Virus record (IMG/VR): IMGVR_UViG_2778260991_000002
Location: 1 to 22,668 of that record
Source of the DNA: a virus
Taxonomy: Duplodnaviria > Heunggongvirae > Uroviricota > Caudoviricetes
Reading direction: 5' to 3' (one strand)
Length of the DNA: 22,668 nt
Under the pieces are notes generated by a model. That model was not told the origin of the DNA, searched no databases, and saw only the letters and a program-made list of their open reading frames with translations. Made by a program: the position numbers and the translations under genes. Below, piece by piece: positions 1-20,790 of this stretch. Every line of letters begins with the position of its first letter. The first letter of the stretch is position 1.

Positions 1-105
1 GACGAGCTGCATGCGGATACCGTGGCATTTGAAGAGAAGTATGGCTCCCAGCTGGAGCTGATATTTCGTTTTATCGACCGTGCGTTGGCAATTGGTGTGC
101 TAGCC
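1..105 (+). CDS. 3' end of an upstream gene of unknown function (partial, start lies outside window)
   Basis: Open frame from base 1 reading ...DELHADTVAFEEKYGSQLELIFRFIDRALAIGVLA, stop TGA at 103-105. Sits directly upstream of Q as expected for a nin-region gene. Product not recognised. Confidence 0.4.
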
Positions 106-122
106 TGATTTGGTGGAGAAAG

Positions 123-491
123 TTGATGCGTGATATTCAGATGGTTCTGGAGCGTTGGGGGGCATGGGCGGCGAGTGATAGTTCAGGCGTTGATTATTCA
201 CCTATAGCTGCTGGGTTTAAGGGACTTCTTCCCTATACAAGCAAGAAACGCTTGGCTTGTTCGGATAGTGATGCCTTAATTATTGAAGGTTGTCTTGCTC
301 GTCTAAAGCAAAAAAGGCCGGACGAACATTCGCTTCTTGTTGCCCATTACCTATACGGTATCTCTAAAAGAAAGCTCGCCAAGGCTCGTAAAAAAGATGA
401 GAAATTGATACGTATAGAAATACAGCTAGCCGAAGGATTTATTGATGGCTGCCTTTCCATGCTAGATCTAACATTAGATTTGGACGTTTAA
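123..491 (+). CDS. Q: Late-gene antitermination protein Q, short QuuD/phage-82-like type (122 aa), not the lambda Q type
   Basis: 122-aa ORF starting MMRDIQMVLERWGAWAA..., recalled as the N-terminus of the short Q antiterminators of E. coli lambdoid prophages. SD-like GGTGGAGAAAG upstream of the ATG at 123 (second ATG at 126). Position immediately upstream of the lysis region fits Q. Confidence 0.8.
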   Translation: MMRDIQMVLERWGAWAASDSSGVDYSPIAAGFKGLLPYTSKKRLACSDSDALIIEGCLARLKQKRPDEHSLLVAHYLYGISKRKLAKARKKDEKLIRIEIQLAEGFIDGCLSMLDLTLDLDV

Positions 492-520
492 TAATACGCC
501 CCTGCATGGGGCGTATTATT
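490..520. terminator. Strong hairpin between convergent Q and KAP NTPase genes; candidate bidirectional intrinsic terminator
   Basis: Perfect inverted repeat AATACGCCCC (493-502) / GGGGCGTATT (508-517) with loop TGCAT, extendable to about 13 bp (490-520). Overlaps the Q stop (489-491) and the minus-strand KAP stop (520-522). Flanked by moderately U-rich sequence on both strands. Confidence 0.55.
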
Positions 521-1851
521 TACTGGATGAATGACATTTGATTAATATATTTTATCAATAACTCTCTGGGGGTAGTACTCCAAAAATTTATGTGTTCATA
601 ATCAGTATAAACATTTGTGAATTTTTTAAGTTCTTCATCACTTTTAGGGGCAAATCGCTCATTAAGAGTAATACTGTCTTTAATTATTCCGAAGAATACA
701 ATGGATATTTCAGGGATTTGCGATCTTCTCTCATAAGAATAAGGTATTTCTTTTATGTTAAGCAGGTCTGCTAAATAAGATATAGATTCAGCGGTAATTT
801 CTTGTTTTAGTTTTTCCTTGTTACCAAAGCAATGTATGAAGGCAGCTACGACAAAGATCATATTTATTAAAGGATTACTGCTTTTGTTCTCATCGTCGTT
901 TAACAGTTGAAAAATGTTAAGATTGCGTGAAAATGTTTGTGTTTCACGTAATGATAAGTTGGTTCGTTGAATTAAATCACGGATAAAGTAACCTGATAAT
1001 CTATTGATTTTATTCAATAACCTTGTTTTTTCTACAAGATAATCCCAATATATAACAGAGGCTTTACATACGTTGTGACCATTTATCAAACATGTATCTG
1101 GAAGCGTGATGGTATATTTTATAAACTTGTCAAGATATTTTTGTGAGTTAATGCTATAACCATAAATATGATTTATAGATGCTTTTAATTGTTCTGTGTT
1201 TGTAACTAAAATAAAAAAGACATTATTGATGTCAAAAATGTGTTTTATTGTTTCAATAACATTTGTTGAAAAACTCGGCTTACATCGGTCTAATTCATCA
1301 ATTATAATTACGATTTTTTGATTTTTTGATATACTTTCGATGCAGGATTTAAGTGAATTTATGTTTTTCTCTGAGTCCATATGGTCTTCAAGCAAATTTT
1401 CAATAGTCCCATCTATTGCTGCATTGCTTGCTTTCTTCATCGCATCTTGGAATTCTTCGGCAACTTCACTAGCCTCCTGTCGTAAAAACCAACCTGCACC
1501 AGCTTTTAGTACCGTTTTTAAACCAAAGCGAATTGCAGGAAGAGATCTCTTAATGAAGTGTTGTTTTTCTTCCTCAGGCAAAATGCTGGCAATTGCAGAG
1601 GTTATGAGAAGTAATGGAGATTCTGCATGATCCCCTTTAAAGGCATCAATATAAACAACTTTAGATTCAGTTTCTTGCTCAATAATGAGATTTTTCAGTT
1701 TGATACTAAATTCTGTTTTCCCTGTTCCCCATGCGCCGTCTATTACCAGTGGTGAAATGTCTGCCTCTGGTTTTAGCAACTTGATGATATTTTCAGCGAT
1801 GTTTCTTCGTTGGAACTCGTCACGTTCAGTGAAAGATAGTGTATCTAACAT
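520..1851 (-). CDS. KAP-family P-loop NTPase (PifA-like), 443 aa; accessory gene, candidate phage-exclusion/defence protein
   Basis: Walker A with the KAP-typical tryptophan, GAWGTGKT, near the N-terminus, and Walker B IVIIIDELDRC (the DELDRC KAP hallmark). Local GC is much lower than the flanks (about 25% in a sampled 60-nt stretch at 1141-1200, against roughly 55-60% in the structural genes). Opposite strand to all phage late genes. Confidence 0.75.
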   Translation of the reverse strand: MLDTLSFTERDEFQRRNIAENIIKLLKPEADISPLVIDGAWGTGKTEFSIKLKNLIIEQETESKVVYIDAFKGDHAESPLLLITSAIASILPEEEKQHFIKRSLPAIRFGLKTVLKAGAGWFLRQEASEVAEEFQDAMKKASNAAIDGTIENLLEDHMDSEKNINSLKSCIESISKNQKIVIIIDELDRCKPSFSTNVIETIKHIFDINNVFFILVTNTEQLKASINHIYGYSINSQKYLDKFIKYTITLPDTCLINGHNVCKASVIYWDYLVEKTRLLNKINRLSGYFIRDLIQRTNLSLRETQTFSRNLNIFQLLNDDENKSSNPLINMIFVVAAFIHCFGNKEKLKQEITAESISYLADLLNIKEIPYSYERRSQIPEISIVFFGIIKDSITLNERFAPKSDEELKKFTNVYTDYEHINFWSTTPRELLIKYINQMSFIQ

Positions 1852-1974
1852 AATATAAACCTATTAACTCCTACAGTAAAAAACGAATAATACGACTTTG
1901 GGATTAAAAATCATTAACCCGGTCCGCAAAAATTCTTGTAATCTGTTAAGAGTGGTTACTTCGCCACACAGCTT

Positions 1975-1999
1975 AAACCCGCCGTCGAGCGGGTTTTTT
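1975..1999 (+). terminator. Rho-independent terminator-like hairpin followed by a T6 run
   Basis: AAACCCGC (1975-1982) pairs with GCGGGTTT (1989-1996) around loop CGTCGA, then T-run to 1999. Lies in the non-coding gap between the KAP gene start and the wHTH/methyltransferase genes, oriented for plus-strand transcription. Confidence 0.55.
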
Positions 2000-2121
2000 G
2001 TACCTGTAAACCAAGAGCAGTACGGTAAACACGCTGGTGGTCGTGAATACTGACTTTTTATCTTGCTGGCTTTTTAGACAAGAGTTATTGGTATGTCATG
2101 TTAACCAGAAGGGAAAAAGAC

Positions 2122-2316
2122 ATGCTAAAACAGCAAGATATGACAGAAACGGCGAAAGTTGTTTTTAATGAATTAAGCATCGAACCGGCAACAGTCGGGG
2201 AGATTGCACAAAACACATACCTTTCACGCGAACGCTGTCAGTTAATACTGACCCAGCTGGTTATGGCGGGGCTGGCAGATTACCAGTTCGGCTGTTACAG
2301 ACGCCTTCAGCAATGA
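2122..2316 (+). CDS. Small winged-helix DNA-binding protein (possibly FaeA/PapI-like), about 64 aa
   Basis: ORF 2098-2316; the ATG at 2122 is preferred because of SD GAAGGGA (2108-2114) 7 nt upstream, with 2098 and 2140 as alternatives. Segment TVGEIAQNTYLSRERCQLILTQLVMAGLADY has the helix-turn-helix/wing pattern of small wHTH regulators. Family assignment is from pattern only. Confidence 0.45.
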   Translation: MLKQQDMTETAKVVFNELSIEPATVGEIAQNTYLSRERCQLILTQLVMAGLADYQFGCYRRLQQ

Positions 2317-2465
2317 AGGGCTTTTAATTTGTGAAAATGGGCGGCTGGTGGGTGTTGGTAGCACTTGCCAGCCATTCGCTCATGCTTACTGGTCACAAGC
2401 GAACCATGGCCCACTGCTTTAGCGCAAAAGCAGAGTGAGCCTACCAGAGTTACGCTTACTGATCC

Positions 2466-3518
2466 ATGAAAAATACTGTAAAAATAAACAGTGTTGATTT
2501 AATCAACGCTGATTGCCTGCATTTTATTCAGTCCCTGCCTGATGACTCCATTGATCTGATTGTTACCGATCCACCGTACTTCAAAGTGAAGCCCAACGGC
2601 TGGGACAATCAGTGGAAAGGGGACGAAGATTACCTTAAGTGGCTGGACCACTGTCTGGCCCAGTTCTGGCGGGTGTTGAAACCTGCCGGAAGCCTTTACC
2701 TGTTCTGTGGACATCGCCTGGCATCTGATATCGAGATCATGATGCGTGAACGTTTCAATGTGCTTAACCATATCATCTGGGCGAAGCCGTCCGGACGTTG
2801 GAATGGGTGTAATAAAGAAAGTTTGCGCGCATATTTTCCTGCCACAGAGCGCGTTCTGTTTGCTGAACATTACCAGGGGCCATATCGCGGCAAAAGTGAC
2901 GGCTATGCGGCAAAAGAAAGGGAACTCAAACAGCACATAATGGCACCGCTGATATCGTATTTCAGGGATGCTCGTGCCGAACTGGGTATAACGGCAAAAC
3001 AGATTGCCGAAGCCACAGGTAAGAAAAATATGGTTTCCCACTGGTTTGGTGCCAGTCAGTGGCAGTTGCCGAATGAGGCTGACTACCGGAAGTTGCAGGC
3101 ACTTTTTTCCCGTATAGCGGCAGAGAAGTTTCAGAAACAACAACTGGAACAACCACACCACCAGCTGGTGGCATCTTATGATTCACTGAATCGCAAATAT
3201 TCTGAATTGCTGGATGAGTTTAAATCTCTCCGGCGCTATTTCTCCGTATCAGTCTCCGTGCCTTATACCGATGTCTGGATGCATAAACCCGTTCAGTTCT
3301 ACCCGGGTAAACATCCGTGTGAGAAACCGGCGGATATGCTCAGGCAAATAATCAACGCCAGTAGTCGACCAGGTGATCTGGTTGCTGATTTCTTTATGGG
3401 ATCCGGTTCCACAATAAAAGCAGCAATGGCGCTGGGGCGTCGGGCGTTAGGTGTTGAGCTTGAGTCAGAGCGGTTTAACCAGACGGTGAAAGAGGTAAGT
3501 GAACTGGTGGGGAAATAA
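2466..3518 (+). CDS. DNA methyltransferase, beta-class amino-methyltransferase (N6-adenine or N4-cytosine; DPPY suggests N6-adenine), 350 aa, no cognate endonuclease seen
   Basis: Motif IV IVTDPPYF near the N-terminus and AdoMet-binding motif I FFMGSGST near the C-terminus, which is the beta-class order. The central region between them is the presumptive target-recognition domain. No restriction endonuclease gene adjacent. Confidence 0.85.
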   Translation: MKNTVKINSVDLINADCLHFIQSLPDDSIDLIVTDPPYFKVKPNGWDNQWKGDEDYLKWLDHCLAQFWRVLKPAGSLYLFCGHRLASDIEIMMRERFNVLNHIIWAKPSGRWNGCNKESLRAYFPATERVLFAEHYQGPYRGKSDGYAAKERELKQHIMAPLISYFRDARAELGITAKQIAEATGKKNMVSHWFGASQWQLPNEADYRKLQALFSRIAAEKFQKQQLEQPHHQLVASYDSLNRKYSELLDEFKSLRRYFSVSVSVPYTDVWMHKPVQFYPGKHPCEKPADMLRQIINASSRPGDLVADFFMGSGSTIKAAMALGRRALGVELESERFNQTVKEVSELVGK

Positions 3519-3568
3519 TTCTGGTGTCAGAGCTTTTATTCGCTAATTTTTTCACTGGGAGGCTATTT

Positions 3569-3826
3569 ATGCATTCACACCATCATCAAATATCTATGAT
3601 CCCACTTACCATGAGTTCACCCATTAAAGGTTTTTCACTGTATGTAGAAAGCGAAGACATGGCTGTCGCTATAGCTGAGCTTGAAAATGCCTTATCACAG
3701 CTCAAGAATGGAAATAAGGCATTCAAAGAAAGTGGCACGCTGGTTGGTAACGTCAGAGCAAGTTATTGCTATCCTTACCGTCCTCATTGTGCCGCGAAAG
3801 GTCTTTATTGGGATGAAGGGGATTAA
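3569..3826 (+). CDS. Hypothetical protein, 85 aa
   Basis: ORF 3524-3826; start at ATG 3569 preferred because of strong SD GGGAGG (3557-3562) 6 nt upstream. Stop TAA 3824-3826 overlaps the stop of the convergent gene. No recognisable motif. Confidence 0.5.
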   Translation: MHSHHHQISMIPLTMSSPIKGFSLYVESEDMAVAIAELENALSQLKNGNKAFKESGTLVGNVRASYCYPYRPHCAAKGLYWDEGD

Positions 3827-4347
3827 GCAAGGACTTGTTCACCGATAGTTACTGGTAACGGACAAATGTATTCCCAGACTGGATCAGGGTTAAAAGTTTT
3901 TCCTGACCAGTAAAGTTCCATTCTGTAGGTGAATTCCAATACCGATGTATCATTTCTTAATAATGACATATCTCCGCGATGATAACTATCTGTTTGTATT
4001 ATGAAAATTTTATCTGATGGTTTTCCGTCTGTAAGTCGAAAATGTTTAGCCTCCTCCAGGTTACCCCAGGCGAAGAGTGACGTATAGCGAGAAGGTTTTT
4101 GCGGGCAAACTCCTCTTCGGTAAAACTCAAGTCCCCAGTCGATGAGTTCGTTTTTATTATAAATTTTTGCCGCATTATTAATGAGGTATCCTTCGCCTTG
4201 TGGAGCAAGCCCGCGCGGAAAAAGTTTGTCTACCAGAGATGACATTTCAACAGGAGTTATATCGGAGAATTGCTTTGGTGTAACGATATCGCCTGTTGAG
4301 TATATTCCTCGGCGATCAACCATAAATAGTTTCATTAATTTCTCCAT
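3823..4347 (-). CDS. Hypothetical protein, 174 aa, cytoplasmic (no signal peptide), moderately AT-rich accessory gene
   Basis: Uninterrupted 174-codon ORF on the minus strand; sampled GC about 37%. Convergent with the 3569-3826 gene and sharing the 4-nt TTAA stop overlap (3823-3826). No family recognised by eye. Confidence 0.6.
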   Translation of the reverse strand: MEKLMKLFMVDRRGIYSTGDIVTPKQFSDITPVEMSSLVDKLFPRGLAPQGEGYLINNAAKIYNKNELIDWGLEFYRRGVCPQKPSRYTSLFAWGNLEEAKHFRLTDGKPSDKIFIIQTDSYHRGDMSLLRNDTSVLEFTYRMELYWSGKTFNPDPVWEYICPLPVTIGEQVLA

Positions 4348-4575
4348 TGATAGTTGTTACTTTTGGCGATGTAACGATATCAAACGAGAATTTATATCGC
4401 CAGATGCTTAATCTGACACTTCATCTGACCCTAGTATGTGCCGTTTTTTTTATTTAAGGCCGCTGACAGGTCCATTTAGTGCGACGCCTTTCCCCGTTTC
4501 CGCTCCTGGAATATTCGGGGATTTTTTATTCCCTCAATTTGCACCCGCGATATGTGCGAGGTGAGAGATGACGAA

Positions 4576-4911
4576 ATGCCTCATAACCCAAATACCTGGC
4601 CGGACTGGCTGGAGTTGTTCCAGAGCTGGTGGCGTGGAGACACACCACTGGGCGCAGTGATTATGTCGATCGTTATGGCTGGTTTACGTATTGCCTATTT
4701 TGGCGGCGGTGGCGGCTGGAAACGAAAAACACTCGAAATTTTGCTCTGTGGTGCTCTGACGCTGACATTTGCATCCGCTCTTGAGTATGTCGGATGGCCT
4801 AAATCGCTTTCTGTTGCCATTGGTGGTGGCGTGGGGCTGATCGGTGTCGATGCTATTCGTGGGGCTGCAATGCGAGTAATCGGTAACAAATTTGGTAGCT
4901 CGAAGGAGTAA
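4576..4911 (+). CDS. Class I holin (three predicted TM segments), not lambda S-like in sequence
   Basis: ORF 4552-4911. ATG at 4576 preferred (SD GAGGTGAGAG at 4558-4567); upstream in-frame ATG at 4552 could give a longer antiholin-like form. Three hydrophobic stretches (LGAVIMSIVMAGLRIAYF, TLEILLCGALTLTFASALEYVGW, LSVAIGGGVGLIGVDAI) and a charged C-terminus. Immediately precedes endolysin R. Confidence 0.7.
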   Translation: MPHNPNTWPDWLELFQSWWRGDTPLGAVIMSIVMAGLRIAYFGGGGGWKRKTLEILLCGALTLTFASALEYVGWPKSLSVAIGGGVGLIGVDAIRGAAMRVIGNKFGSSKE

Positions 4912-4914
4912 TTT

Positions 4915-5391
4915 ATGCAGGCACTAAATTCCCAGCGTAAAGCTTTCCTTGATATGGTGGCATGGTCAGAAGGAACGGATAACGGGAGACAACCGACACG
5001 TAACCACGGTTATGACGTTATTGTCGGTGGCGAACTCTTCACTGATTACTCCGATCACCCTCGAAAACTTGTCACGCTAAATTCGAAAATCAAATCAACA
5101 GCAGCCGGACGTTACCAACTCCTTTCCCGTTGGTGGGATGCCTACCGCAAGCAGCTTGGTCTGAAAGACTTCTCTCCGAAAAGCCAGGACGCTGTTGCAC
5201 TGCAGCAGATTAAAGAGCGTGGCGCTTTACCGATGATTGATCGCGGTGATATTAGTCAGGCTATCGATCGTTGCAGCAATATCTGGGCTTCACTGCCGGG
5301 CGCTGGTTATGGTCAGTTCGAGCATAAAGTTGACAGCCTGATTGCAAAATTCAAAGAAGCAGGCGGAACGGTCAGAGAGATTGAGGTATGA
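4915..5391 (+). CDS. R: Endolysin R (lambda-type lytic transglycosylase), 158 aa
   Basis: Near-identical to recalled lambda R (…[52 protein letters not shown]…). Start 4 nt after the holin stop; its stop overlaps the Rz start. Confidence 0.95.
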
Positions 5392-5831
5392 GCAGAATAA
5401 CCGCGATTATCTCCGCTCTGGTTATTTGTATCATCGCCTGCCTGTCATTGGCTGTTAATCATTACCGTGATAACGCCATCACCTACAAAGAACAGCGCGA
5501 CAAAGCCGCATCCATTATCGCTGACATGCAGAAGCGTCAACGTGATGTAGCTGAACTCGATGCCAGATACACAAAGGAGCTTGCTGATGCTAACGCGACT
5601 ATCGAAAGTCTTCGTGCTGATGTTTCTGCTGGTCGTAAGTGGCTGTACGTCAAAGCAGTCTGTCCGGACATGCATAAAACCACCGCCGCCTCCGGCGTGG
5701 ATGATGGCGCCAGCCCCAGACTTACTGACACCGCTCAACGGGATTATTTCGTTCTCAGAGAGCGCATCGAAACCATAACTAACCAATTGAATGGCCTGCA
5801 AGAGTATGTGAGATCACAGTGTTCATATTAG
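5388..5831 (+). CDS. Rz: Spanin inner-membrane subunit Rz (i-spanin)
   Basis: N-terminal TM segment [20 protein letters not shown], then a coiled-coil region; matches lambda Rz. ATGA overlap with the R stop. Confidence 0.9.
5587..5778 (+). CDS. Rz1: Spanin outer-membrane lipoprotein subunit Rz1 (o-spanin), embedded in the +1 frame of Rz
   Basis: ORF 5560-5778 lies wholly inside Rz in another frame. ATG at 5587 preferred (SD AAGGAG 7 nt upstream). Lipobox-like LVVSGC followed by TSKQSV and a proline-rich stretch PPPPPAW, as in lambda Rz1. Confidence 0.8.
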
Positions 5832-5869
5832 AAAAGTCTTATCATAAGATTTTTGTATATGGATGCATT

Positions 5870-6244
5870 ATGTCTCAATACGCGCGCGCCGCTTTAATTG
5901 CTTATTATTTGGTTGCTGATAATTCAATATCCCCTCGTGATGCATGGGATGCTGCTGTCGCTGAGGTTACAGAAAGCGAATCGGCAAGAAAGAAGGGATG
6001 CCCAAGGGCAACGTTTCTCGCTCTGGCGGATAGCGGTTATCTGAAGAAAGTAAAACCACATCATGGGGAGAAAAAGATCGGTAAGTTGTACCAAAGGGCA
6101 ATTGAAGTTGCGAATCTGATTCTTGATTTACCCGGAATTAGCAAAGCTGAGCTAGTTGATAAAGCTTGCTATAAAGACAGGCAAGGGTCTTATGACATTG
6201 CTCTAACTCTCGCTCAGTGCGGATTACTCCAGCGTCCTCAATAA
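5870..6244 (+). CDS. Hypothetical protein (about 124 aa) downstream of the lysis cassette, at the position lambda uses for bor/accessory genes
   Basis: ORF 5819-6244 opens with a GTG inside the Rz 3' end; the in-frame ATG at 5870 is the more likely start (weak SD GGA). Followed by a terminator-like hairpin. No motif recognised. Confidence 0.45.
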   Translation: MSQYARAALIAYYLVADNSISPRDAWDAAVAEVTESESARKKGCPRATFLALADSGYLKKVKPHHGEKKIGKLYQRAIEVANLILDLPGISKAELVDKACYKDRQGSYDIALTLAQCGLLQRPQ

Positions 6245-6262
6245 GATATTAAGTGATTTATG

Positions 6263-6286
6263 GCCTCGCTTTTAGCGGGGCTTTTT
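6263..6286 (+). terminator. Rho-independent terminator-like hairpin
   Basis: GCCTCGC (6263-6269) / GCGGGGC (6275-6281) with one G-U pair, loop TTTTA, then T5 (6282-6286). Directly after the 5870-6244 ORF. Confidence 0.5.
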
Positions 6287-6342
6287 CATATCTGAATCTC
6301 ACCATGCATATCATCACCTGACTGGAACGTCAGGAGAATTCG

Positions 6343-6525
6343 TTACGGGGATTCGATAAAGGTATTCAAGCCTGACACATTATGCGCTGTATCGTCGCCG
6401 TATTCCCGCATTAACCATGACCGTAGCCCGACGGGGAATTCCTTCTGCGCGAGTGTGCGGGAATAATCAAAAACGATGCACACCGGGTTTTTACCGCGTT
6501 TATGATTCGCGGGTTTGTCACTCAT
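6343..6525 (-). CDS. Small hypothetical protein (about 60 aa; ORF extends to 6594), possibly a small prophage protein of the kind found just upstream of cos in other lambdoid prophages
   Basis: Minus-strand ORF 6343-6594; the internal Met at 6525 gives MSDKPANHKRGKNPVCIV.... The equivalent lambda region is non-coding as far as I recall, so this may not be a real gene. Confidence 0.25.
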   Translation of the reverse strand: MSDKPANHKRGKNPVCIVFDYSRTLAQKEFPVGLRSWLMREYGDDTAHNVSGLNTFIESP

Positions 6526-6679
6526 GCTCGCCAGTCCTGTGCGGGGGTGGAAGAAACAGGACGTGTATTCAGGTCTGTGCGACCGTGGTCGCACGACTTT
6601 GGTCGTTCAGATATTAAATCCCATTGCGAAGTAAACCCGAATTGCTGGCGGGTCCTTTCCGGCAATCCAGAACGTTACG

Positions 6680-6691
6680 GGGCGGAAGGCT
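6680..6691 (+). other. cosN, the 12-nt cohesive-end site: GGGCGGAAGGCT here, against GGGCGGCGACCT in lambda
   Basis: Flanks match the recalled lambda ends closely (…CGTTACG | 12-mer | CGCGGGTTTTCGCTATTTATGAAAATTTTCCGGTTTAAGG…), and Nu1 starts about 190 nt downstream as in lambda. The 12-mer differs from lambda at positions 7-10. Confidence 0.65.
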
Positions 6692-6868
6692 CGCGGGTTT
6701 TCGCTATTTATGAAAATTTTCCGGTTTAAGGTGTTTCCGTTCTTCTTCGTCGTAACTTAATGTTTTTATTTAAAATACCCCCTGAAAAGAAAGGAAACGA
6801 CAGGTGCTGAAAACGGGCTTTTTGGCCTTTGTCGTTTCCTTTCTCTGTTTTTGTCCGTGGAATGAACA
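6692..6868 (+). promoter_or_regulatory. cosB region (terminase small-subunit binding elements and IHF site) between cosN and Nu1
   Basis: Near-identical to the recalled lambda left-end leader (CGCGGGTTTTCGCTATTTATGAAAATTTTCCGGTTTAAGG...GAAAGGAAACGACAGGTGCTGAAA...), ending at the Nu1 ATG. Individual R and I1 elements not delimited. Confidence 0.55.
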
Positions 6869-7388
6869 ATGGAAGTCAACAAAAAGCAGCTGGCTGACAT
6901 TTTCGGTGCGAGTATCCGTACCATTCAGAACTGGCAGGAACAGGGAATGCCCGTTCTGCGAGGCGGTGGCAAGGGTAATGAGGTGCTTTATGATTCTGCC
7001 GCCGTTATAAAATGGTATGCCGAAAGGGATGCTGAAATTGAGAACGAAAAGCTGCGCCGGGAAGTTGAAGAACTGCGGCAGGCCAGCGAGACAGATCTCC
7101 AGCCAGGGACTATTGAGTACGAACGCCATCGACTTACGCGTGCGCAGGCCGACGCACAGGAGCTGAAAAATGCCAGAGACTCCGCTGAAGTGGTGGAAAC
7201 CGCATTCTGTACTTTCGTGCTGTCGCGGATCGCAGGTGAAATTGCCAGTATTCTCGACGGGATCCCCCTGTCGGTGCAGCGGCGTTTTCCGGAACTGGAA
7301 AACCGACATGTTGATTTCCTGAAACGGGATATCATCAAAGCCATGAACAAAGCAGCCGCGCTGGATGAACTGATACCGGGGTTGCTGA

Positions 7389-7414
<26 letters not shown>
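6869..7414 (+). CDS. Nu1: Terminase small subunit Nu1
   Basis: 181 aa, essentially identical to recalled lambda Nu1 (MEVNKKQLADIFGASIRTIQNWQEQGMPVLRGGGKGNEVLYDSAAVIKWYAERDAEIENEKLRREVEELRQ...), including the N-terminal wHTH. Confidence 0.97.
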
Positions 7415-11095
<3,681 letters not shown>

Positions 11096-11115
<20 letters not shown>

Positions 11116-12415
11116 TCTCCCGCATATTGCCAGCATGGCCTTTAATGAGCCGCTGATGCTTGAACCCGCCTATGCGCGGGTTTTCTTTTGTGCGCTTGCA
11201 AGCCAGCTTGGGATCAGCCGCCTGACGGATGCGGTGTCCGGTGACAGCCTAGCTGCCGGAGAGGCACCCGCGACGCTGGCGTTATCCGGTGATGATGACG
11301 GACCACGACAGGCCCGCAGTTATCAGGTCATGAACGGCATCGCCGTGCTGCCGGTGTCCGGCACGCTGGTCAGCCGGACGCGAGCGCTGCAGCCGTATTC
11401 GGGGATGACCGGTTACAACGGCATTATCGCCCGTCTGCAACAGGCTGCCAGCGACCCGATGGTGGACGGCATTCTGCTGGATATGGACACACCGGGCGGG
11501 ATGGTGGCGGGAGCATTTGACTGTGCTGACATCATCGCCCGTGTGCGTGACATAAAACCGGTATGGGCGCTTGCCAACGACATGAACTGCAGTGCAGGTC
11601 AGTTGCTTGCCAGTGCCGCCTCCCGGCGTCTGGTCACGCAGACCGCCCGGACAGGCTCCATCGGCGTCATGATGGCTCACAGTAATTACGGTGCTGCGCT
11701 GGAGAAACAGGGTGTGGAAATCACGCTGATTTACAGCGGCAGCCATAAGGTGGATGGCAACCCCTACAGCCATCTTCCGGATGACGTCCGGGAGACACTG
11801 CAGTCCCGGATGGACGCAACCCGCCGGATGTTTGCACAGAAGGTGTCGGCATATACCGGCCTGTCCGTGCAGGCTGTGCTGGATACCGAGGCTGCAGTGT
11901 ACAGCGGTCAGGAGGCCATTGATGCCGGACTGGCTGATGAACTTGTTAACAGCACCGATGCGATCACCGTCATGCGTGATGCACTGGATGCACGTAAATC
12001 CCGTCTCTCAGGAGGGCGAATGACCAAAGAGACTCAATCAACAACTGTTTCAGCCACTGCTTCGCAGGCTGACGTTACTGACGTGGTGCCAGCGACGGAG
12101 GGCGAAAACGCCAGCGCGGCGCAGCCGGACGTGAACGCGCAGATCACCGCAGCGGTTGCGGCAGAAAACAGCCGCATTATGGGGATCCTCAACTGTGAGG
12201 AGGCTCACGGACGCGAAGAACAGGCACGCGTGCTGGCCGAAACCCCCGGTATGACCGTGGAAACGGCCCGCCGCATTCTGGCCGCAGCACCACAGAGTGC
12301 ACAGGCGCGCAGTGACACTGCGCTGGATCGTCTGATGCAGGGGGCACCGGCACCGCTGGCTTCAGGTAACCCGGCATCTGATGCCGTTAACGATTTGCTG
12401 AACACACCAGTGTAA
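11096..12415 (+). CDS. C: Head maturation protease/scaffold protein C (439 aa), GTG start
   Basis: The listed ORF start at 10961 lies inside B. The lambda-equivalent start is GTG at 11096 (VTAELRNLPHIASMAFNEPLM...) with SD GAGGAGGAG upstream; the length is then exactly 1320 nt as in lambda C. Confidence 0.9.
11810..12415 (+). CDS. Nu3: Capsid scaffolding protein Nu3, in-frame internal start within C
   Basis: In-frame ATG at 11810 (MDATRRMFAQKVSAYTGLSVQ...), 714 nt after the C start, the same offset as lambda Nu3 relative to C. Shares the C stop. Confidence 0.75.
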   Translation: MDATRRMFAQKVSAYTGLSVQAVLDTEAAVYSGQEAIDAGLADELVNSTDAITVMRDALDARKSRLSGGRMTKETQSTTVSATASQADVTDVVPATEGENASAAQPDVNAQITAAVAAENSRIMGILNCEEAHGREEQARVLAETPGMTVETARRILAAAPQSAQARSDTALDRLMQGAPAPLASGNPASDAVNDLLNTPV

Positions 12416-12424
12416 GGGATGTTT

Positions 12425-12757
12425 ATGACGAGCAAAGAAACCTTTACCCATTACCAGCCGCTGGGCAACAGTGACCCGGCTCATACCGCAACCGCGCCCG
12501 GCGGATTGAGTAAGAAAACGCCAGCAATGACTCCGTTGATGCCGGATACCTCCACCCGTAAGCTGGTTGCGTGGGATGGCACCACCGACGGTGCTGCCGT
12601 TGGCATTCTTGCTGTTGCTGCTGACCAGACCAGCACCACGCTGACGTTCTACAAGTCCGGCACGTTCCGTTATGAGGATGTGCTCTGGCCGGAGGCTGCC
12701 AGCGACGAGGCGAAAAAACGGACCGCGTTTGCCGGAACGGCAATCAGCATCGTTTAA
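12425..12757 (+). CDS. D: Head decoration protein D
   Basis: [29 protein letters not shown]..., near-identical to lambda gpD. ATG at 12425 with SD AAGGGA upstream; an ATG two codons earlier at 12419 is less likely. Confidence 0.93.
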
Positions 12758-12774
12758 CCTGACCCTTCATCACT

Positions 12775-12799
12775 AAAGGCCGCCTGTGCGGCTTTTTTT
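12775..12799 (+). terminator. Terminator-like hairpin plus T7 run in the D-E intergenic region (inside the late operon)
   Basis: GCCGC (12779-12783) / GCGGC (12788-12792) with loop CTGT, flanking AAA/TTT extension, then seven T (12793-12799). Sits 14 nt upstream of the E start. Confidence 0.5.
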
Positions 12800-12812
12800 A
12801 CGGGATTTTTTT

Positions 12813-13838
12813 ATGTCGATGTACACAACCGCCCAGCTGCTGGCGGCAAATGAGCAGAAATTTAAGTTTGATCCGCTGTTTCTGCGTCTCTTTTTCCGTG
12901 AGAGCTATCCCTTCACCACGGAGAAAGTCTATCTCTCACAAATTCCGGGACTGGTAAACATGGCGCTGTACGTTTCGCCGATTGTTTCCGGTGAGGTTAT
13001 CCGTTCCCGTGGCGGCTCCACCTCTGAATTTACGCCGGGATATGTCAAGCCGAAGCATGAAGTGAATCCGCAGATGACCCTGCGTCGCCTGCCGGATGAA
13101 GATCCGCAGAATCTGGCTGACCCGGCTTACCGCCGCCGTCGCATCATCATGCAGAACATGCGTGACGAAGAGCTGGCCATTGCTCAGGTCGAAGAGATGC
13201 AGGCCGTTTCTGCCGTGCTCAAGGGCAAATACACCATGACCGGTGAAGCCTTCGATCCGGTTGAAGTGGATATGGGCCGCAGTGCGGCGAACAACATCAC
13301 ACAGTCCGGCGGCACGGAGTGGAGCAAGCGTGACAAGTCCACGTATGACCCGACCGACGATATCGAAGCCTACGCGCTGAACGCCAGCGGTGTGGTGAAT
13401 ATCATCGTGTTCGATCCGAAAGGCTGGGCGCTGTTCCGTTCCTTCAAAGCCGTCAGGGAGAAGCTGGATACCCGTCGTGGCTCTCATTCCGAGCTGGAGA
13501 CAGCGGTGAAAGACCTGGGTAAAGCGGTGTCCTATAAGGGGATGTATGGCGATGTGGCCATCGTCGTGTATTCCGGACAGTACGTGGAAAACGGCGTCAA
13601 AAAGAACTTCCTGCCGGACAACACGATGGTGCTGGGGAACACTCAGGCACGCGGTCTGCGCACCTATGGCTGCATTCAGGATGCGGACGCACAGCGCGAA
13701 GGCATTAACGCCTCTGCCCGTTACCCGAAAAACTGGGTGACCACCGGCGATCCGGCGCGAGAGTTCACCATGATTCAGTCAGCACCGCTGATGCTGCTGG
13801 CTGATCCTGATGAGTTCGTGTCCGTTCAACTGGCGTAA
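12813..13838 (+). CDS. E: Major capsid protein E
   Basis: MSMYTTAQLLAANEQKFKFDPLFLRLFFRESYPFTTEKVYLSQIPGLVNMALYVSPIVSGEV..., near-identical to lambda gpE (341 aa). ATG at 12813; the listed ORF start at 12786 is an upstream GTG inside the hairpin. Confidence 0.95.
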   Translation: MSMYTTAQLLAANEQKFKFDPLFLRLFFRESYPFTTEKVYLSQIPGLVNMALYVSPIVSGEVIRSRGGSTSEFTPGYVKPKHEVNPQMTLRRLPDEDPQNLADPAYRRRRIIMQNMRDEELAIAQVEEMQAVSAVLKGKYTMTGEAFDPVEVDMGRSAANNITQSGGTEWSKRDKSTYDPTDDIEAYALNASGVVNIIVFDPKGWALFRSFKAVREKLDTRRGSHSELETAVKDLGKAVSYKGMYGDVAIVVYSGQYVENGVKKNFLPDNTMVLGNTQARGLRTYGCIQDADAQREGINASARYPKNWVTTGDPAREFTMIQSAPLMLLADPDEFVSVQLA

Positions 13839-13840
13839 TC

Positions 13841-13861
13841 ATGGCCCTTCGGGGCCATTTT
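13841..13861 (+). terminator. Hairpin with UUCG tetraloop plus U-rich tail in the E-FI intergenic region
   Basis: ATGGCCC (13841-13847) / GGGCCAT (13852-13858) with loop TTCG, followed by TTTCTCTCT. Sits between the E stop (13838) and the FI start (13880). Confidence 0.5.
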
Positions 13862-13879
13862 CTCTCTGTGGGGGAGTCC

Positions 13880-14275
13880 ATGACGAAAGATGAACTGATT
13901 GCCCGTCTCCGGTCGCTGGGTGAGCAACTGAACCGTGATGTCAGCCTGACGGGAACGAAAGAAGAACTGGCGCTCCGTGTGGCAGAGCTGGAAGAGGAGC
14001 TTGATGACACGGATGACGCAGCCGGTCAGGACACGTCTGTCAGCCCGGAAAATGCGCTGACCGGACATGAAAATGAGGTGGTATCAGCACAGACGGATAC
14101 CGTGACTGATACGGCTGCTCTGGTCACGGTTGTGGCACTGGTGATGCTGCATACCGATGCACTTCACGCCACGCGGGATGAACCTGTGGCATTTGTGCTG
14201 CCGGGAACGGCGTTTCGTGTCTCTGCCGGTGTGGCAGCCGAAATGACAGAACGTGGCCTGGCCAGAATGCAATAA
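13880..14275 (+). CDS. FI: DNA packaging protein FI
   Basis: MTKDELIARLRSLGEQLNRDVSLTGTKEELALRVAELEEELDD... matches lambda gpFI. ATG at 13880 with SD GGGGGAG upstream. Confidence 0.92.
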   Translation: MTKDELIARLRSLGEQLNRDVSLTGTKEELALRVAELEEELDDTDDAAGQDTSVSPENALTGHENEVVSAQTDTVTDTAALVTVVALVMLHTDALHATRDEPVAFVLPGTAFRVSAGVAAEMTERGLARMQ

Positions 14276-14286
14276 CGGGAGGCGCT

Positions 14287-14640
14287 GTGGCTGATTTCGA
14301 TAACCTGTTCGATGCTGCCATTGCCCGCGCTGATGAAACGATACGCGGGTACATGGGAACGTCAGCCACCATGACATCCGGTGAGCAGTCCGGTGCTGTG
14401 ATACGTGGTGTTTTTGATGACCCTGAAAATATCAGCTATGCCGGACAGGGCGTGCGCGTTGAAGGCTCCAGCCCGTCCCTGTTTGTCCGGACTGATGAGG
14501 TGCGGCAGCTGCGGCGTGGAGACACGCTGACCATCGGTGAGGAAAACTTCTGGATAGACCGGGTTTCGCCGGATGATGGCGGAAGCTGTCATCTCTGGCT
14601 TGGGCGTGGCGTGCCGCCTGCCGTTAACCGTCGCCGCTGA
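14287..14640 (+). CDS. FII: Head-tail joining protein FII
   Basis: 117 aa, near-identical to lambda gpFII (MADFDNLFDAAIARADETIRGYMGTSAT...). Confidence 0.95.
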   Translation: MADFDNLFDAAIARADETIRGYMGTSATMTSGEQSGAVIRGVFDDPENISYAGQGVRVEGSSPSLFVRTDEVRQLRRGDTLTIGEENFWIDRVSPDDGGSCHLWLGRGVPPAVNRRR

Positions 14641-14651
14641 AAGGGGGATGT

Positions 14652-15230
14652 ATGGCCATAAAAGGTCTTGAGCAGGCCGTTGAAAACCTCAGCCGTATCA
14701 GCAAAACGGCGGTGCCTGGTGCCGCCGCAATGGCCATTAACCGCGTTGCGTCATCCGCGATATCGCAGTCTGCGTCACAGGTTGCCCGTGAGACAAAGGT
14801 ACGCCGGAAACTGGTAAAGGAAAGGGCCAGGCTGAAAAGGGCCACGGTCAAAAATCCGCAGGCCAGAATCAGGGTTAACCGGGGGGATTTGCCCGTAATC
14901 AAGCTGGGTAATGCGCGGGTTGTCCTGTCCCGCCGCAGGCGTCGTAAAAAGGGGCAGCGTTCATCCCTGAAAGGTGGCGGCAGCGTGCTTGTGGTGGGAA
15001 ACCGTCGTATTCCCGGCGCGTTTATTCAGCAACTGAAAAATGGCCGGTGGCATGTCATGCAGCGTGTGGCCGGGAAAAAACGTTACCCCATTGATGTGGT
15101 GAAAATCCCGATGGCGGTGCCGCTGACCACGGCGTTTAAACAGAATATTGAGCGGATACGGCGTGAGCGTCTTCCGAAAGAGCTGGGCTATGCGCTGCAG
15201 CATCAACTGAGAATGGTAATAAAGCGATGA
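14652..15230 (+). CDS. Z: Tail completion protein Z
   Basis: 192 aa, near-identical to lambda gpZ (MAIKGLEQAVENLSRISKTAVPGAAAMAINRVASSAISQ...). Confidence 0.95.
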   Translation: MAIKGLEQAVENLSRISKTAVPGAAAMAINRVASSAISQSASQVARETKVRRKLVKERARLKRATVKNPQARIRVNRGDLPVIKLGNARVVLSRRRRRKKGQRSSLKGGGSVLVVGNRRIPGAFIQQLKNGRWHVMQRVAGKKRYPIDVVKIPMAVPLTTAFKQNIERIRRERLPKELGYALQHQLRMVIKR

Positions 15231-15622
15231 AACATACTGAACTCCGTGCAGCCGTACTGGATGCACTGGAGAAGCATGACACCGGGGCGACGCTTTTTGA
15301 TGGTCGCCCCGCTGTTTTTGATGAGGAAGATTTTCCGGCAGTTGCCGTTTATCTCACCGGCGCTGAATACACGGGCGAAGAGCTGGACAGCGATACCTGG
15401 CAGGCGGAGCTGCATATCGAAGTTTTCCTGCCTGCTCAGGTGCCGGATTCAGAGCTGGATGCGTGGATGGAGTCCCGGATTTATCCGGTGATGAGTGATA
15501 TCCCGGCACTGTCAGATTTGATCACCAGTATGGTGGCCAGTGGCTATGACTACCGGCGCGACGATGATGCGGGCCTGTGGAGTTCAGCCGATCTGACTTA
15601 TGTCATTACCTATGAAATGTGA
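15227..15622 (+). CDS. U: Tail terminator protein U
   Basis: 131 aa, near-identical to lambda gpU ([22 protein letters not shown]...). ATGA overlap with the Z stop. Confidence 0.95.
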
Positions 15623-15629
15623 GGACGCT

Positions 15630-16370
15630 ATGCCTGTACCAAATCCTGTAATGCCGGTGAAAGGTGCCGGGACCACCCTGTGGGTTTATAAGGGGAGCGG
15701 TGACCCTTATGCGAACCCGCTTTCAGACGTTGACTGGTCGCGTCTGGCAAAAGTTAAAGACCTGACGCCCGGCGAACTGACCGCTGAGTCCTATGACGAC
15801 AGCTATCTCGATGATGAAGATGCAGACTGGACTGCGACCGGGCAGGGGCAGAAATCTGCCGGAGATACCAGCTTCACGCTGGCGTGGATGCCCGGAGAGC
15901 AGGGGCAGCAGGCGCTGCTGGCGTGGTTTAATGAAGGCGATACCCGTGCCTATAAAATCCGCTTCCCGAACGGCACGGTCGATGTGTTCCGTGGCTGGGT
16001 CAGCAGTATCGGTAAGGCGGTGACGGCGAAGGAAGTGATCACCCGCACGGTGAAAGTCACCAATGTGAGACGTCCGTCGATGGCAGAAGATCGCAGCACG
16101 GTAACAGCGGCAACCGGCATGACCGTGACGCCTGCCAGCACCTCGGTGGTGAAAGGGCAGAGCACCACGCTGACCGTGGCCTTCCAGCCGGAGGGCGTAA
16201 CCGACAAGAGCTTTCGTGCGGTGTCTGCGGATAAAACAAAAGCCACCGTGTCGGTCAGTGGTATGACCATCACCGTGAAAGGCGTTGCTGCAGGTAAGGT
16301 CAACATTCCGGTTTTATCCGGTAATGGTGAACTTGCTGCGGTTGCAGAAATCACTGTCACCGACAGTTAA
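15630..16370 (+). CDS. V: Major tail tube protein V
   Basis: [42 protein letters not shown]..., near-identical to lambda gpV including the C-terminal Ig-like domain. ATG at 15630 with SD GAGGA upstream. Confidence 0.95.
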
Positions 16371-16385
16371 TCCGGAGAGTCAGCG

Positions 16386-16808
16386 ATGTTCCTGAAAACC
16401 GAATCATTTGAACATAACGGCGTGACCGTCACGCTTTCTGAACTGTCAGCCCTGCAGCGTATTGAGCATCTCGCCCTGATGAAACGGCAGGCAGAACAGG
16501 CGGAGTCAGACAGCAACCGGAAGTTTACTGTGGAAGACGCCATCAGAACCGGTGCTTTTGTGGTAGCGATGTCCCTGTGGCATAACCATCCGCAGAAGAC
16601 AAAGCAGCCTTCCATGAATGAAGCCGTTAAACAGATTGAGCAGGAAGTGCTTACCACCTGGCCTACAGAGGCAATTTCTCATGCTGAAAACGTGGTGTAC
16701 CGGCTGTCCGGTATGTATGAGTTTGTGGTGAATGATGCCCCTGAACAGGCAGAGGACGCCGGGCCTGCAGAGCCTGTTTCTGCGGGAAAGTGTTCGACGG
16801 TGAGCTGA
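16386..16808 (+). CDS. G: Tail assembly chaperone G
   Basis: 140 aa, near-identical to lambda gpG (MFLKTESFEHNGVTVTLSELSALQRIEHLALMKRQAEQAESD...). Confidence 0.95.
   Translation: MFLKTESFEHNGVTVTLSELSALQRIEHLALMKRQAEQAESDSNRKFTVEDAIRTGAFVVAMSLWHNHPQKTKQPSMNEAVKQIEQEVLTTWPTEAISHAENVVYRLSGMYEFVVNDAPEQAEDAGPAEPVSAGKCSTVS
16784..16790 (+). other. Programmed -1 ribosomal frameshift slippery heptamer GGGAAAG (G to G-T)
   Basis: G GGA AAG lies in the G frame 6 codons before the G stop. The -1 frame is open from here to 17224 and encodes the T sequence, the conserved lambda G/G-T arrangement. Confidence 0.85.
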
Positions 16809-17224
16809 GTTTTGCCCTGAAACTGGCGCGCGAGATGGGGCGACCCGACTGGCGTGCCATGCTTGCCGGGATGTCATCCACGGAGTATGCCGACTGGCAC
16901 CGCTTTTACAGTACCCATTATTTTCATGATGTTCTGCTGGATATGCACTTTTCCGGGCTGACGTACACCGTGCTCAGCCTGTTTTTCAGCGATCCGGATA
17001 TGCATCCGCTGGATTTCAGTCTGCTGAACCGGCGCGAGGCTGACGAAGAGCCTGAAGATGATGTGCTGATGCAGAAAGCGGCAGGGCTTGCCGGAGGTGT
17101 CCGCTTTGGCCCGGACGGGAATGAAGTTATCCCTACTTCCCCGGATGTGGCGGACATGACGGAGGATGACGTAATGCTGATGACAGTATCAGAAGGGATC
17201 GCAGGAGGAGTCCGGTATGGCTGA
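16784..17224 (+). CDS. T: T portion of the G-T fusion tail assembly chaperone (made only by -1 frameshift from G; full product spans 16386-17224)
   Basis: The -1 frame ORF (listed 16790-17224) encodes ...FDGELSFALKLAREMGRPDWRAMLAGMSSTEYADWHRFYSTHYFHDVLLDMHFSGLTYTVLSLFF..., matching lambda gpT. It has no independent SD or start context. Confidence 0.85.
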   Translation, partial: GKVFDGELSFALKLAREMGRPDWRAMLAGMSSTEYADWHRFYSTHYFHDVLLDMHFSGLTYTVLSLFFSDPDMHPLDFSLLNRREADEEPEDDVLMQKAAGLAGGVRFGPDGNEVIPTSPDVADMTEDDVMLMTVSEGIAGGVRYG

Positions 17225-19766: not shown

Positions 19767-20092
19767 AAACCTTCCGCTGGAAAGTGAAACCCGGTATGGA
19801 TGTGGCTTCGGCCCCTTCCGTAAGAAAGGTGCGCTTTGGTGATGGCTATTCCCAGCGAGCGCCTGCCGGGCTGAATGCCGACCTGAAAACGTACAGCGTG
19901 ACGCTTTCTGTTCCCCGTTGGGAGGCCACGGCGCTTGAGTCGTTTCTGGCTGAGCACGGGGGCTGGAAATCCTTTCTGTGGACGCCGCCTTATGAGTGGC
20001 GGCAGATAAAGGTGACCTGCGCAAAATGGTCGTCGCGGGTCAGTATGCTGCGTGTTGAGTTCAGCGCAGAGTTTGAACAGGTGGTGAACTGA
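19763..20092 (+). CDS. M: Tail tip protein M
   Basis: 109 aa, near-identical to lambda gpM (MKTFRWKVKPGMDVAS...). ATGA overlap with the H stop. Confidence 0.95.
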   Translation: MKTFRWKVKPGMDVASAPSVRKVRFGDGYSQRAPAGLNADLKTYSVTLSVPRWEATALESFLAEHGGWKSFLWTPPYEWRQIKVTCAKWSSRVSMLRVEFSAEFEQVVN

Positions 20093-20790
20093 TGCAGGAT
20101 ATCCGGCAGGAAACACTGAATGAATGCACCCGTGCGGAGCAGTCGGCCAGCGTGGTGCTCTGGGAAATCGACCTGACAGAGGTCGGTGGAGAACGTTATT
20201 TTTTCTGTAATGAGCAGAACGAAAAAGGTGAGCCGGTCACCTGGCAGGGGCGACAGTATCAGCCGTATCCCATTCAGGGGAGCGGTTTTGAACTGAATGG
20301 CAAAGGCACCAGTACGCGCCCCACGCTGACGGTTTCTAACCTGTACGGTATGGTCACCGGGATGGCGGAAGATATGCAGAGTCTGGTCGGCGGAACGGTG
20401 GTCCGGCGTAAGGTTTACGCCCGTTTTCTGGATGCGGTGAACTTCGTCAACGGAAACAGTTACGCCGATCCGGAGCAGGAGGTGATCAGCCGCTGGCGCA
20501 TTGAGCAGTGCAGCGAACTGAGCGCGGTGAGTGCCTCTTTTGTACTGTCCACGCCGACGGAAACGGACGGCGCTGTTTTTCCGGGACGTATCATGCTGGC
20601 CAACACCTGCACCTGGACCTATCGCGGCGATGAGTGCGGTTATCACGGTCCGGCGATCGCGGATGAATATGACCAGCCAACGTCCGATATCACGAAGGAT
20701 AAATGCAGCAAATGCCTGAGCGGCTGTAAGTTCCGCAATAACGTCGGCAACTTTGGCGGCTTCCTTTCCATTAACAAACTTTCGCAGTAA
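20092..20790 (+). CDS. L: Tail tip protein L
   Basis: 232 aa, near-identical to lambda gpL (MQDIRQETLNECTRAEQSASVVLWEIDLTEVGGERYFFCNEQ...), with the C-terminal cysteine cluster. TGATG overlap with the M stop. Confidence 0.95.
   Translation: MQDIRQETLNECTRAEQSASVVLWEIDLTEVGGERYFFCNEQNEKGEPVTWQGRQYQPYPIQGSGFELNGKGTSTRPTLTVSNLYGMVTGMAEDMQSLVGGTVVRRKVYARFLDAVNFVNGNSYADPEQEVISRWRIEQCSELSAVSASFVLSTPTETDGAVFPGRIMLANTCTWTYRGDECGYHGPAIADEYDQPTSDITKDKCSKCLSGCKFRNNVGNFGGFLSINKLSQ

Follow-up and report, generated by a model that had tools for sequence, protein, structure and literature searches.

The window analysed here is a 22,668 nucleotide stretch of lambdoid phage DNA (IMG/VR record IMGVR_UViG_2778260991_000002, positions 1 to 22,668), and our subject is the island of about 4 kb that lies in it between the antiterminator gene Q and the holin gene S, two genes that are only about 0.7 kb apart in phage λ. 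The left anchor of the island is the stop codon, at 491, of a plus-strand Q gene (123–491, 122 amino acids; PF06530, E=1.8e-52; phrog_79), and the right anchor is the start codon, at 4552, of a λ-family holin S gene on the same strand (4552–4911; TIGR01594, E=6e-37; PF05106; phrog_126). Five intact open reading frames (ORFs) lie between these anchors and encode, from left to right, a KAP-family P-loop NTPase, a small winged-helix (wHTH) protein, a DNA adenine methyltransferase, a conserved 85 amino acid protein and a 170 amino acid DUF2441/BC2332-like protein; none of the five matches virion or lysis families. A reading made earlier from the sequence alone had described just such an island of five genes without virion or lysis role, and its boundaries and the family scans agree with that description. 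So do full measurements of GC content with the patchy values that had been sampled for the sequence-only reading: 32.6% in the KAP gene (26.7% in its lowest 300-nucleotide segment), 48.2% in the methyltransferase gene, 40.5% in 3823–4335 and 57.2% in the structural region at 7000–22668. The order of parts is Q, slot A, a late promoter and terminator (pR'-tR'), slot B, slot C and then S-R-Rz, and the island is probably best understood not as one unit but as three independently exchangeable modules around a late-transcription control unit.

The limits of the three modules and their co-occurrence were found by blastn of window positions 1–7500 against 10, and then 90, related loci (given L numbers below). 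Module A (492–1906, minus strand; 1415 bp, 32.7% GC), delimited by blastn breakpoints and a survey of the junction, contains the KAP gene; module B (2001–3526, plus strand; 47.8% GC) contains the wHTH and methyltransferase genes; and module C (3547–4442, 896 bp, 40.7% GC) is a two-gene cassette that uses both strands. In L005, which has the same Q gene and no methyltransferase, similarity to the window ends at about 1997 and resumes at about 4495, and phage SfV, which has a different Q gene, shares only 1976–3526 and the region from 4541 onwards with the window. The block at 3547–4442 is common only to L007, L008 and L009 among the annotated relatives. The cargo genes had been proposed to be independently acquired, and alignment to lambdoid prophages, which gives sharp insertion boundaries and variable cargo, supports this, since the three blocks assort independently: KAP occurs without the methyltransferase (Q-KAP-holin in L005), the methyltransferase without KAP (Q-methyltransferase-holin in SfV and L010), KAP and the methyltransferase without cassette C (L001, L002 and L011), and the methyltransferase and cassette C without KAP (L008 and L100). 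All three are present in L102, a GenBank chromosome that is 95.8% identical to the window over 1–5328. The gene set is not universally conserved; 0 of 5426 complete E. coli genomes cover at least 80% of window positions 1–7000 in one place, and the KAP gene is present in 50 of these genomes and cassette C in seven (megablast).

The window is 99.5% identical to the IMG/VR prophage L011 over 1–3526, and it is 99.5% identical to L100, from a different genome, over 1915–7500. Because these two nearly identical stretches overlap across the methyltransferase module, the window looks like a recent recombinant with a crossover inside that module. No flanking direct repeats or att-like sites of at least 14 nucleotides are present in 400–4600, so recombination in the conserved flanks would be the simplest mechanism of exchange; transposition or site-specific insertion of the cassettes was considered and is unsupported by any such repeat.

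The control unit around which the modules lie was recognized by comparison of 80 IMG/VR loci that encode relatives of the window Q protein. Most of them have a conserved non-coding block 0.8–2.7 kb after Q, and alignment of 53 unique sequences from 79 loci predicts a Q-dependent, pR'-like late promoter at 1907–1959 of the window (plus strand). The block has a near-invariant palindrome GCGGTCCGC (also given as [G/C]CGGTCCGC; the window version is CCGGTCCGC, at 1919–1927), a –10 element of the form TAnnnT (TAATCT at 1939–1944 in the window) and a near-invariant predicted initial transcribed stretch GTTAAGAGTGGTTAC at 1945–1959. It is followed by a tR'-like intrinsic terminator at 1975–1999 (plus strand), which folds into a GC-rich 8 bp stem with a U-run and forms the left boundary of module B; a terminator is annotated at the homologous place in SfV. 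The block varies with the type of Q: SfV, with its other Q type, lacks the part upstream of the terminator, and L003, whose Q protein is only 52% identical, shares it only from AAGAGTGGTTAC onwards. This position, conservation and co-variation suggest that 1907–1999 is the predicted pR', Q-utilisation site and tR' of the late operon. The KAP gene would then lie upstream of the late promoter and outside the late operon, between the Q stop codon and pR', and modules B and C would lie downstream of tR'. The island had been said to occupy the position where Shiga toxin (Stx) phages carry stx, and this is correct for the slot of module C, where Stx phage 1720a-02 carries stx2A, and not for KAP, which is upstream of the late promoter and on the opposite strand. 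A consensus promoter scan was uninformative, as it gave 11 promoter-like sites in 1–5000 and 11.2 are expected by shuffling, and the tail rule of that scan missed both obvious hairpin terminators, which were instead folded directly.

Slot A, between Q and the promoter block, is a busy exchange site. It was surveyed in the 73 Q-related loci with a recognisable promoter block, which are not independent samples, and it is occupied in 72 of these (gap 0.8–2.7 kb); the only empty site is in L047, where the promoter block starts 14 bp past the Q stop codon. There are about 20 gene architectures among the 73 loci, with minus-strand cargo in every locus but three. Alternatives to KAP include a TIR protein (PADLOC TIR-TM, E=2e-57), an HNH-like protein that matches PDC-M68A and nuclease models of effectors of the cyclic-oligonucleotide-based anti-phage signalling system (CBASS), an NYN nuclease, a Clp-like protease, an OLD-like ATPase-Toprim protein (HEC-04, E=4e-47) and, in eight loci, a three-gene set whose largest member matches PDC-S42 and otherwise only the NCBIfam "LAPAL motif". 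The commonest cargo is a 150 amino acid membrane protein with a 313 amino acid protein (19 loci), followed by a 339 amino acid protein (14 loci); the commonest cassettes were sampled at L026 882–2294, L060 788–1807 and L048 7403–8987. A PADLOC-matching protein is present in about half of the loci, if candidate models and two weak matches are counted. Slot A is therefore a hotspot in the sense that one junction receives many mutually exclusive cassettes, a sizeable share of which have defence domains. In one locus (L078 8535–9218) an integrase-type transposase fragment lies inside the slot.

The slot A gene of the window (520–1851, minus strand) encodes a 443 amino acid KAP-family P-loop NTPase. 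Its residues 15–317 match positions 1–292 of the 293-position profile PF07693 (E=9e-71, 238.9 bits with a cut-off of 20), the protein also matches phrog_8614, and both Walker motifs are intact (A, GAWGTGKT, at residue 39; B, VIIIDE, at residue 181). A PADLOC scan, which the sequence-only reading had proposed for the island's ORFs, makes the protein a candidate of type PDC-S20, a single-gene model (PDLC04956, E=3.7e-177; residues 3–442 against model positions 4–449 of 450), with weaker partial matches to QatA and PifA (the latter E=6e-18, residues 7–252 against a 720-position model). Residues 318–443 match nothing in the families scanned, and no clear transmembrane segment is present, the highest 19-residue Kyte-Doolittle mean being 1.53 (residues 325–343); transmembrane helices in or near the NTPase domain are common in the KAP family, though not universal. 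The same 1415 bp gap between Q and the promoter is found in L005, L011, L014, L016, L017, L019 and L021; KAP is full-length and 92–99% conserved in 11 of the 13 loci that carry the gene, and L061 has a full-length, 62% identical homologue in the same slot. A 13 bp perfect hairpin at 490–520, between the convergent Q and KAP stop codons, folds with –21.3 kcal/mol on the plus strand and –20.8 on the minus strand (z = –5.1 and –7.1; none of 200 shuffles is as stable) and resembles a terminator that acts in both directions.

In Enterococcus faecalis, KAP NTPases whose C-terminal regions have no known function give protection from phage, for which an intact Walker B motif is required (PMC13552941), and the F plasmid KAP protein PifA excludes phage T7 (PMC13552941). 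These precedents and the pattern of slot A point to a defence role, and by analogy the window protein is most likely a candidate single-gene anti-phage protein with a lysogen-expressed, NTPase-dependent function. Module A would be a classical "moron": a low-GC insert that brings its own terminator hairpin and lies antisense, past the Q stop codon and before the late promoter. Its gene would be expressed from its own promoter in the lysogen as a one-protein anti-phage defence in which an NTPase switch is coupled to the C-terminal region of about 125 amino acids, and it might be shut off by the converging early and late transcription when its own prophage is induced.

Module B begins with the wHTH gene (2098–2316, plus strand; phrog_331, E=5e-35), whose product has 72 amino acids (64 in RefSeq homologues) and weak matches to DprA_WH, TrmB and MarR_2. 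This gene accompanies the methyltransferase gene in L001–L004, L006, L008, L010, L011 and others, and is missing where the methyltransferase is missing; the pair is a widespread lambdoid and Stx phage module, and the gene order in phage 1720a-02 is Q, wHTH, methyltransferase, stx2A. The second gene (2466–3518, plus strand) encodes a 350 amino acid β-class N6-adenine DNA methyltransferase of the M.EcoGI/M.EcoGII family (PF01555, E=2e-42, over residues 29–341), with its motifs in β order (VTDPPY at 33–38 and FFMGSGS at 309–315). It is identical to M.EcoGII at 282 of 349 residues (81%) over the full length with two gaps, the reference being the sequence in Supplementary Table S1 of PMC11551740, which was machine-read and may contain a few errors, and it shares 81% identity with the phage 1720a-02 enzyme as well. 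M.EcoGII is reported to methylate adenines whatever the surrounding sequence, to be silent in the lysogen and to have deleterious effects on expression, and the 1720a-02 enzyme has been named as its close relative (PMC5778455). The suggestion that genes at this site may be defence genes is supported for KAP by its match to PDC-S20 and not supported for the methyltransferase, which its 81% identity to M.EcoGII marks as a probable counter-defence enzyme. Module B is probably a late-expressed anti-restriction module, judging from its sequence relationships, and its place directly after tR' fits a gene pair that is switched on by Q antitermination alone and shields progeny DNA from restriction. 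Made only after Q antitermination, the methyltransferase would act on the adenines of the new phage genomes with scarcely any sequence preference, or none, and these genomes would survive restriction in the next host.

Module C consists of two convergent genes whose 3' ends overlap by 4 bp. The first encodes the 85 amino acid protein (3569–3826, plus strand; the ORF as listed is 3524–3826, and homologues make the ATG at 3569 the most likely start) and the second the 170 amino acid DUF2441/BC2332-like protein (3823–4335, minus strand; the ORF as listed is 3823–4347), which most likely starts at 4335, where GGAG lies six bases upstream and a length of 170 amino acids is common to all the homologues. 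A direct hmmscan of the 170 amino acid protein against Pfam gave no match even at E=10, and its homologues carry a precomputed PF10386 (DUF2441) annotation. A profile of 125 sequences finds BC2332 (PDB 2AUA) by hmmsearch with E=2.2e-15, and an AlphaFold model from the same 125-sequence alignment has a predicted local distance difference test (pLDDT) score of 97.7 (a model from a 10-sequence alignment, with 58.9, was not used). As modelled, the protein has an ADP-ribosyltransferase (ART) fold, the fold common to the catalytic domains of cholera, heat-labile, pertussis and diphtheria toxins. DUF2441 belongs to the Pfam ADP-ribosyl clan, and BC2332-like proteins are a SCOP family of that superfamily (PMC7955679, PMC3000352); ProFunc found an active-site match of 2AUA to diphtheria toxin, of the H-Y-E class (PMC3024214). 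Among the 125 sequences R73 and R83 are invariant and E70, P81, S82, Y142, W143 and E155 are conserved in at least 90%; R73, R83, S82 and E155 were weighed as parts of a catalytic triad (R-S-E or H-Y-E) at the nicotinamide adenine dinucleotide (NAD) site, with no clear assignment to the pocket. A fold search of BFVD matched only uncharacterised phage proteins, and a profile search of the whole library yields 1061 representatives, most of which are proteins of 165–200 amino acids that stand alone.

The 85 amino acid protein belongs to a narrow family of 17 clusters, and its protein sequence is kept in prophages of Salmonella and Arsenophonus, where its gene is always convergent with DUF2441. 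Even beside DUF2441 homologues of only 32–34% identity there is a small convergent ORF with weak similarity to it (35–37% over 40 amino acids). Nearly all the phage contexts compared have the DUF2441 gene on the strand opposite to its neighbours (Klebsiella phage KP12 is an exception). This gene lies just upstream of the holin gene in Salmonella prophages and in L123, which has such a distant pair and a holin nearly identical to that of the window, and in L007 and L009 the cassette, at 93% identity, has another Q-like gene on one side and a class II holin gene on the other. In Gordonia phage JuJu a DUF2441 homologue adjoins a RelBE pair and an integrase gene. A DDE transposase splits the small ORF from the DUF2441 gene in L105 (6529–7737), and in the Salmonella prophage L093 (8930–10940), which has the DUF2441 cassette, the early region also encodes a C5 methylase and a restriction enzyme of the NgoMIV type. 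The sequence-only reading had counted the two genes as unknowns; they are now seen to form one conserved two-gene cassette whose larger member has the ART fold, although we know of no DUF2441 family member that has been characterised. An orientation opposite to the late promoter makes it unlikely that Q drives the DUF2441 gene. The protein would be an NAD-dependent modifying enzyme, expressed in the lysogen and serving defence or lysogenic conversion, and the 85 amino acid protein, which is encoded on the late strand and would co-evolve with it, would be its regulator or antidote.

Several observations weigh against this overall picture. The two commonest slot A cargos have no PADLOC or Pfam match, several slot A membrane-protein cassettes match no library scanned and about half of the slot A cassettes have nothing in PADLOC, Pfam or NCBIfam, so that the view of slot A as a defence hotspot comes from about half of the loci. 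PDC-S20, for which the literature searched holds no paper, is a purely computational candidate. Two related prophages, L012 (7401–8728) and L041 (7400–8732), have a split or truncated KAP gene, with pieces of 214 and of 113 and 280 amino acids; this indicates that KAP is not under universal selection and points to occasional decay of cargo. For KAP and DUF2441 the promoter candidates are no more than weak matches to the consensus, in a region (1–5000) where the number of such matches is that expected by shuffling. An identity of 81% to M.EcoGII is not proof of non-specificity; the 19% of residues that differ include some in the central target-recognition region. DUF2441 has no demonstrated activity, and L107 has a 44% identical homologue without the 85 amino acid partner. 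In L106 (4001–5746) a reverse-strand HicAB pair and a remnant of the 85 amino acid protein's gene take the place of DUF2441 upstream of the holin gene, which suggests that the cassette was replaced by recombination inside that gene.

Other explanations were weighed. The one that survives best, although we think it unlikely, is that cassette C is a toxin-antitoxin or addiction module that stabilises the prophage and is not concerned with phage defence, with DUF2441 as an NAD-dependent toxin of DarT- or RES-like type and the 85 amino acid protein as its antitoxin. The two genes are convergent, not co-transcribed, no macrodomain or Xre-type domain was found in the 85 amino acid partner, which has no Pfam, PADLOC, PHROGs or NCBIfam match, most of the 1061 DUF2441 representatives stand alone at about 170–190 amino acids, and the 44% identical homologue does without the partner.

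It is improbable that the island is neutral debris of mosaic recombination whose genes have no selected function in the phage. The window is indeed a recombinant of two nearly identical sources, KAP is disrupted in L012 and L041, and insertion sequences split cassette C in L105 and lie in slot A of L078. Yet all five ORFs are intact in the window, KAP is full-length and well conserved in most of the loci that carry it and has the more distant full-length homologue in L061, and the protein-level conservation of DUF2441 and its partner extends across genera; the filling of slot A in 72 of 73 loci with strict antisense orientation would not be maintained by drift.

Still more doubtful is the possibility that DUF2441 is a counterpart of Stx, serving virulence or directed at the host, whose place at the stx locus allows its release upon induction. 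It occupies the slot of stx2A in phage 1720a-02, its fold is that of the bacterial toxins named above, and the ProFunc match of 2AUA is to the active site of diphtheria toxin (PMC3024214); its orientation, antisense to the late promoter, argues against expression under Q. Both the toxin-antitoxin and the virulence-factor explanations are less likely than a lysogen-expressed NAD-dependent enzyme with a regulatory partner.

Finally, we give almost no credence to a type II restriction-modification defence unit made of the wHTH gene as controller, the methyltransferase and the convergent gene as endonuclease: the gene order does resemble C-M with a convergent R, and the methyltransferase matches the PADLOC "MTase_II" model (PDLC03265, E=6e-152), but the convergent gene product has an ART fold and not a nuclease fold, neither PADLOC nor Pfam finds a nuclease match in it, the wHTH and 85 amino acid neighbours likewise have none, the enzyme belongs to the orphan, non-specific M.EcoGII family, and in every surveyed locus that has both it and a λ-type holin the holin gene follows directly, except in L008 and the window.

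With three exchangeable modules around the control unit as the preferred view, we raise, tentatively, a further possibility: that the Q-pR' junction is an undescribed, high-turnover anti-phage hotspot whose commonest cassettes (the transmembrane protein with the 313 amino acid protein, the 339 amino acid protein and the three-gene set) are new defence systems, and separately that DUF2441 and its 85 amino acid partner are a new NAD-dependent defence or conversion module, in which the partner would be translated from the late transcript and would turn the enzyme off once its own prophage goes lytic. Nothing specific on a lambdoid Q-S or Q-pR' defence hotspot was found in the literature searched, and by that search the hotspot between the Q stop codon and pR', its anchoring promoter block and the phage-borne DUF2441 pair at the stx slot appear to be new.

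No prophages are commoner in E. coli, Shigella and Salmonella than the lambdoid ones, which carry Shiga toxin at this same locus. If the Q-pR' hotspot is real, its anchors, the 3' end of Q and the GCGGTCCGC...GTTAAGAGTGGTTAC block, could be used to harvest candidate immune genes from thousands of genomes, as has been done for P2 and P4. An M.EcoGII-type methylase within a Q-dependent transcript suggests a reason for the silence of such an enzyme in lysogens and a possible route of these phages across restriction barriers, and the DUF2441 cassette offers tractable access to an ADP-ribosyltransferase family for which one structure has been solved (2AUA, released in 2005).

The genes downstream of the holin gene are, in order, an endolysin gene, Rz, a DUF6979 gene, Nu1 and λ-type head and tail genes. 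Rz1 is embedded in Rz as a 72 amino acid ORF in another frame (5560–5778, plus strand) with the o-spanin features of a lipobox (LVVSGC) and a proline-rich tail. The interval from Rz to the small terminase gene is a second variable slot; it holds the DUF6979 gene in the window (5819–6868), and in relatives, of which L001 (6457–8195), L002 (6671–8300) and L007 (7938–8785) were compared, its cargo is KilA-N, DUF1398 and YlcI genes, a "sce7726 family" and "beta family" pair, the serum-resistance lipoprotein gene iss (Iss) with a YlcI/YnfO gene, or HNH genes. A weak hairpin with a U-run lies at 4504–4530 (plus strand), about 20 nucleotides before the holin start, and is not separable from shuffles (z = –1.7); in SfV a putative terminator is annotated at the corresponding site, between the methyltransferase gene and S. 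No Rfam match was found in the whole window at the gathering threshold.

In Stx phages tRNA genes often lie between Q and stx. The window has the same late control layout as the stx locus (Q, pR', tR', stx, S) and the same upstream module of wHTH and methyltransferase genes, and differs from it in having neither stx genes (no ORF in 490–4551 matches the stxA or stxB subunit families) nor tRNA genes (none in the whole window by ARAGORN). Unlike DarTG, cassette C has no adjacent macrodomain antitoxin in an operon, its partner gene being a convergent one for an 85 amino acid protein without family match. The DUF2441 protein differs from BC2332 of Bacillus cereus (PDB 2AUA; SCOP d.166.1.6), an uncharacterised and longer protein of 224 amino acids, with which it has 16–18% identity, and also in that its gene is phage-borne, antisense and paired with that of the 85 amino acid protein. 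The KAP protein resembles PifA and the Enterococcus and gut-bacterial KAP proteins (PMC13552941) in its KAP domain, its intact Walker A and B motifs, its single gene and its uncharacterised C-terminal region, while its match to PifA is only partial and, unlike EF_KAP, it has no clear transmembrane helix. The methyltransferase resembles M.EcoGII and M.EcoGI (PMC5778455) in sequence (81% over 349 amino acids), in its β motif order and in its prophage location beside the late control region, and has the same neighbours as in phage 1720a-02.

Familiar lambdoid morons are λ bor and lom and HK97 gp15. Defence hotspots have been described in P2 and P4 prophages (Rousset et al. 2022, PMC9122126; Vassallo et al. 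2022, PMC9519451). Like both of these, the island has optional genes of atypical GC content, with their own terminator and in opposite orientation, between conserved phage genes, and like the P2 and P4 hotspots slot A receives many alternative cassettes at one junction, several with defence-type domains. Unlike the P2 and P4 hotspots, its junction runs from the Q stop codon to the late promoter in the lambdoid Q family, a site unnamed in the literature searched. All the parts of the island are nevertheless of known kinds, namely morons and prophage defence hotspots, an anti-restriction methylase of the M.EcoGII family and a protein of the ART superfamily.

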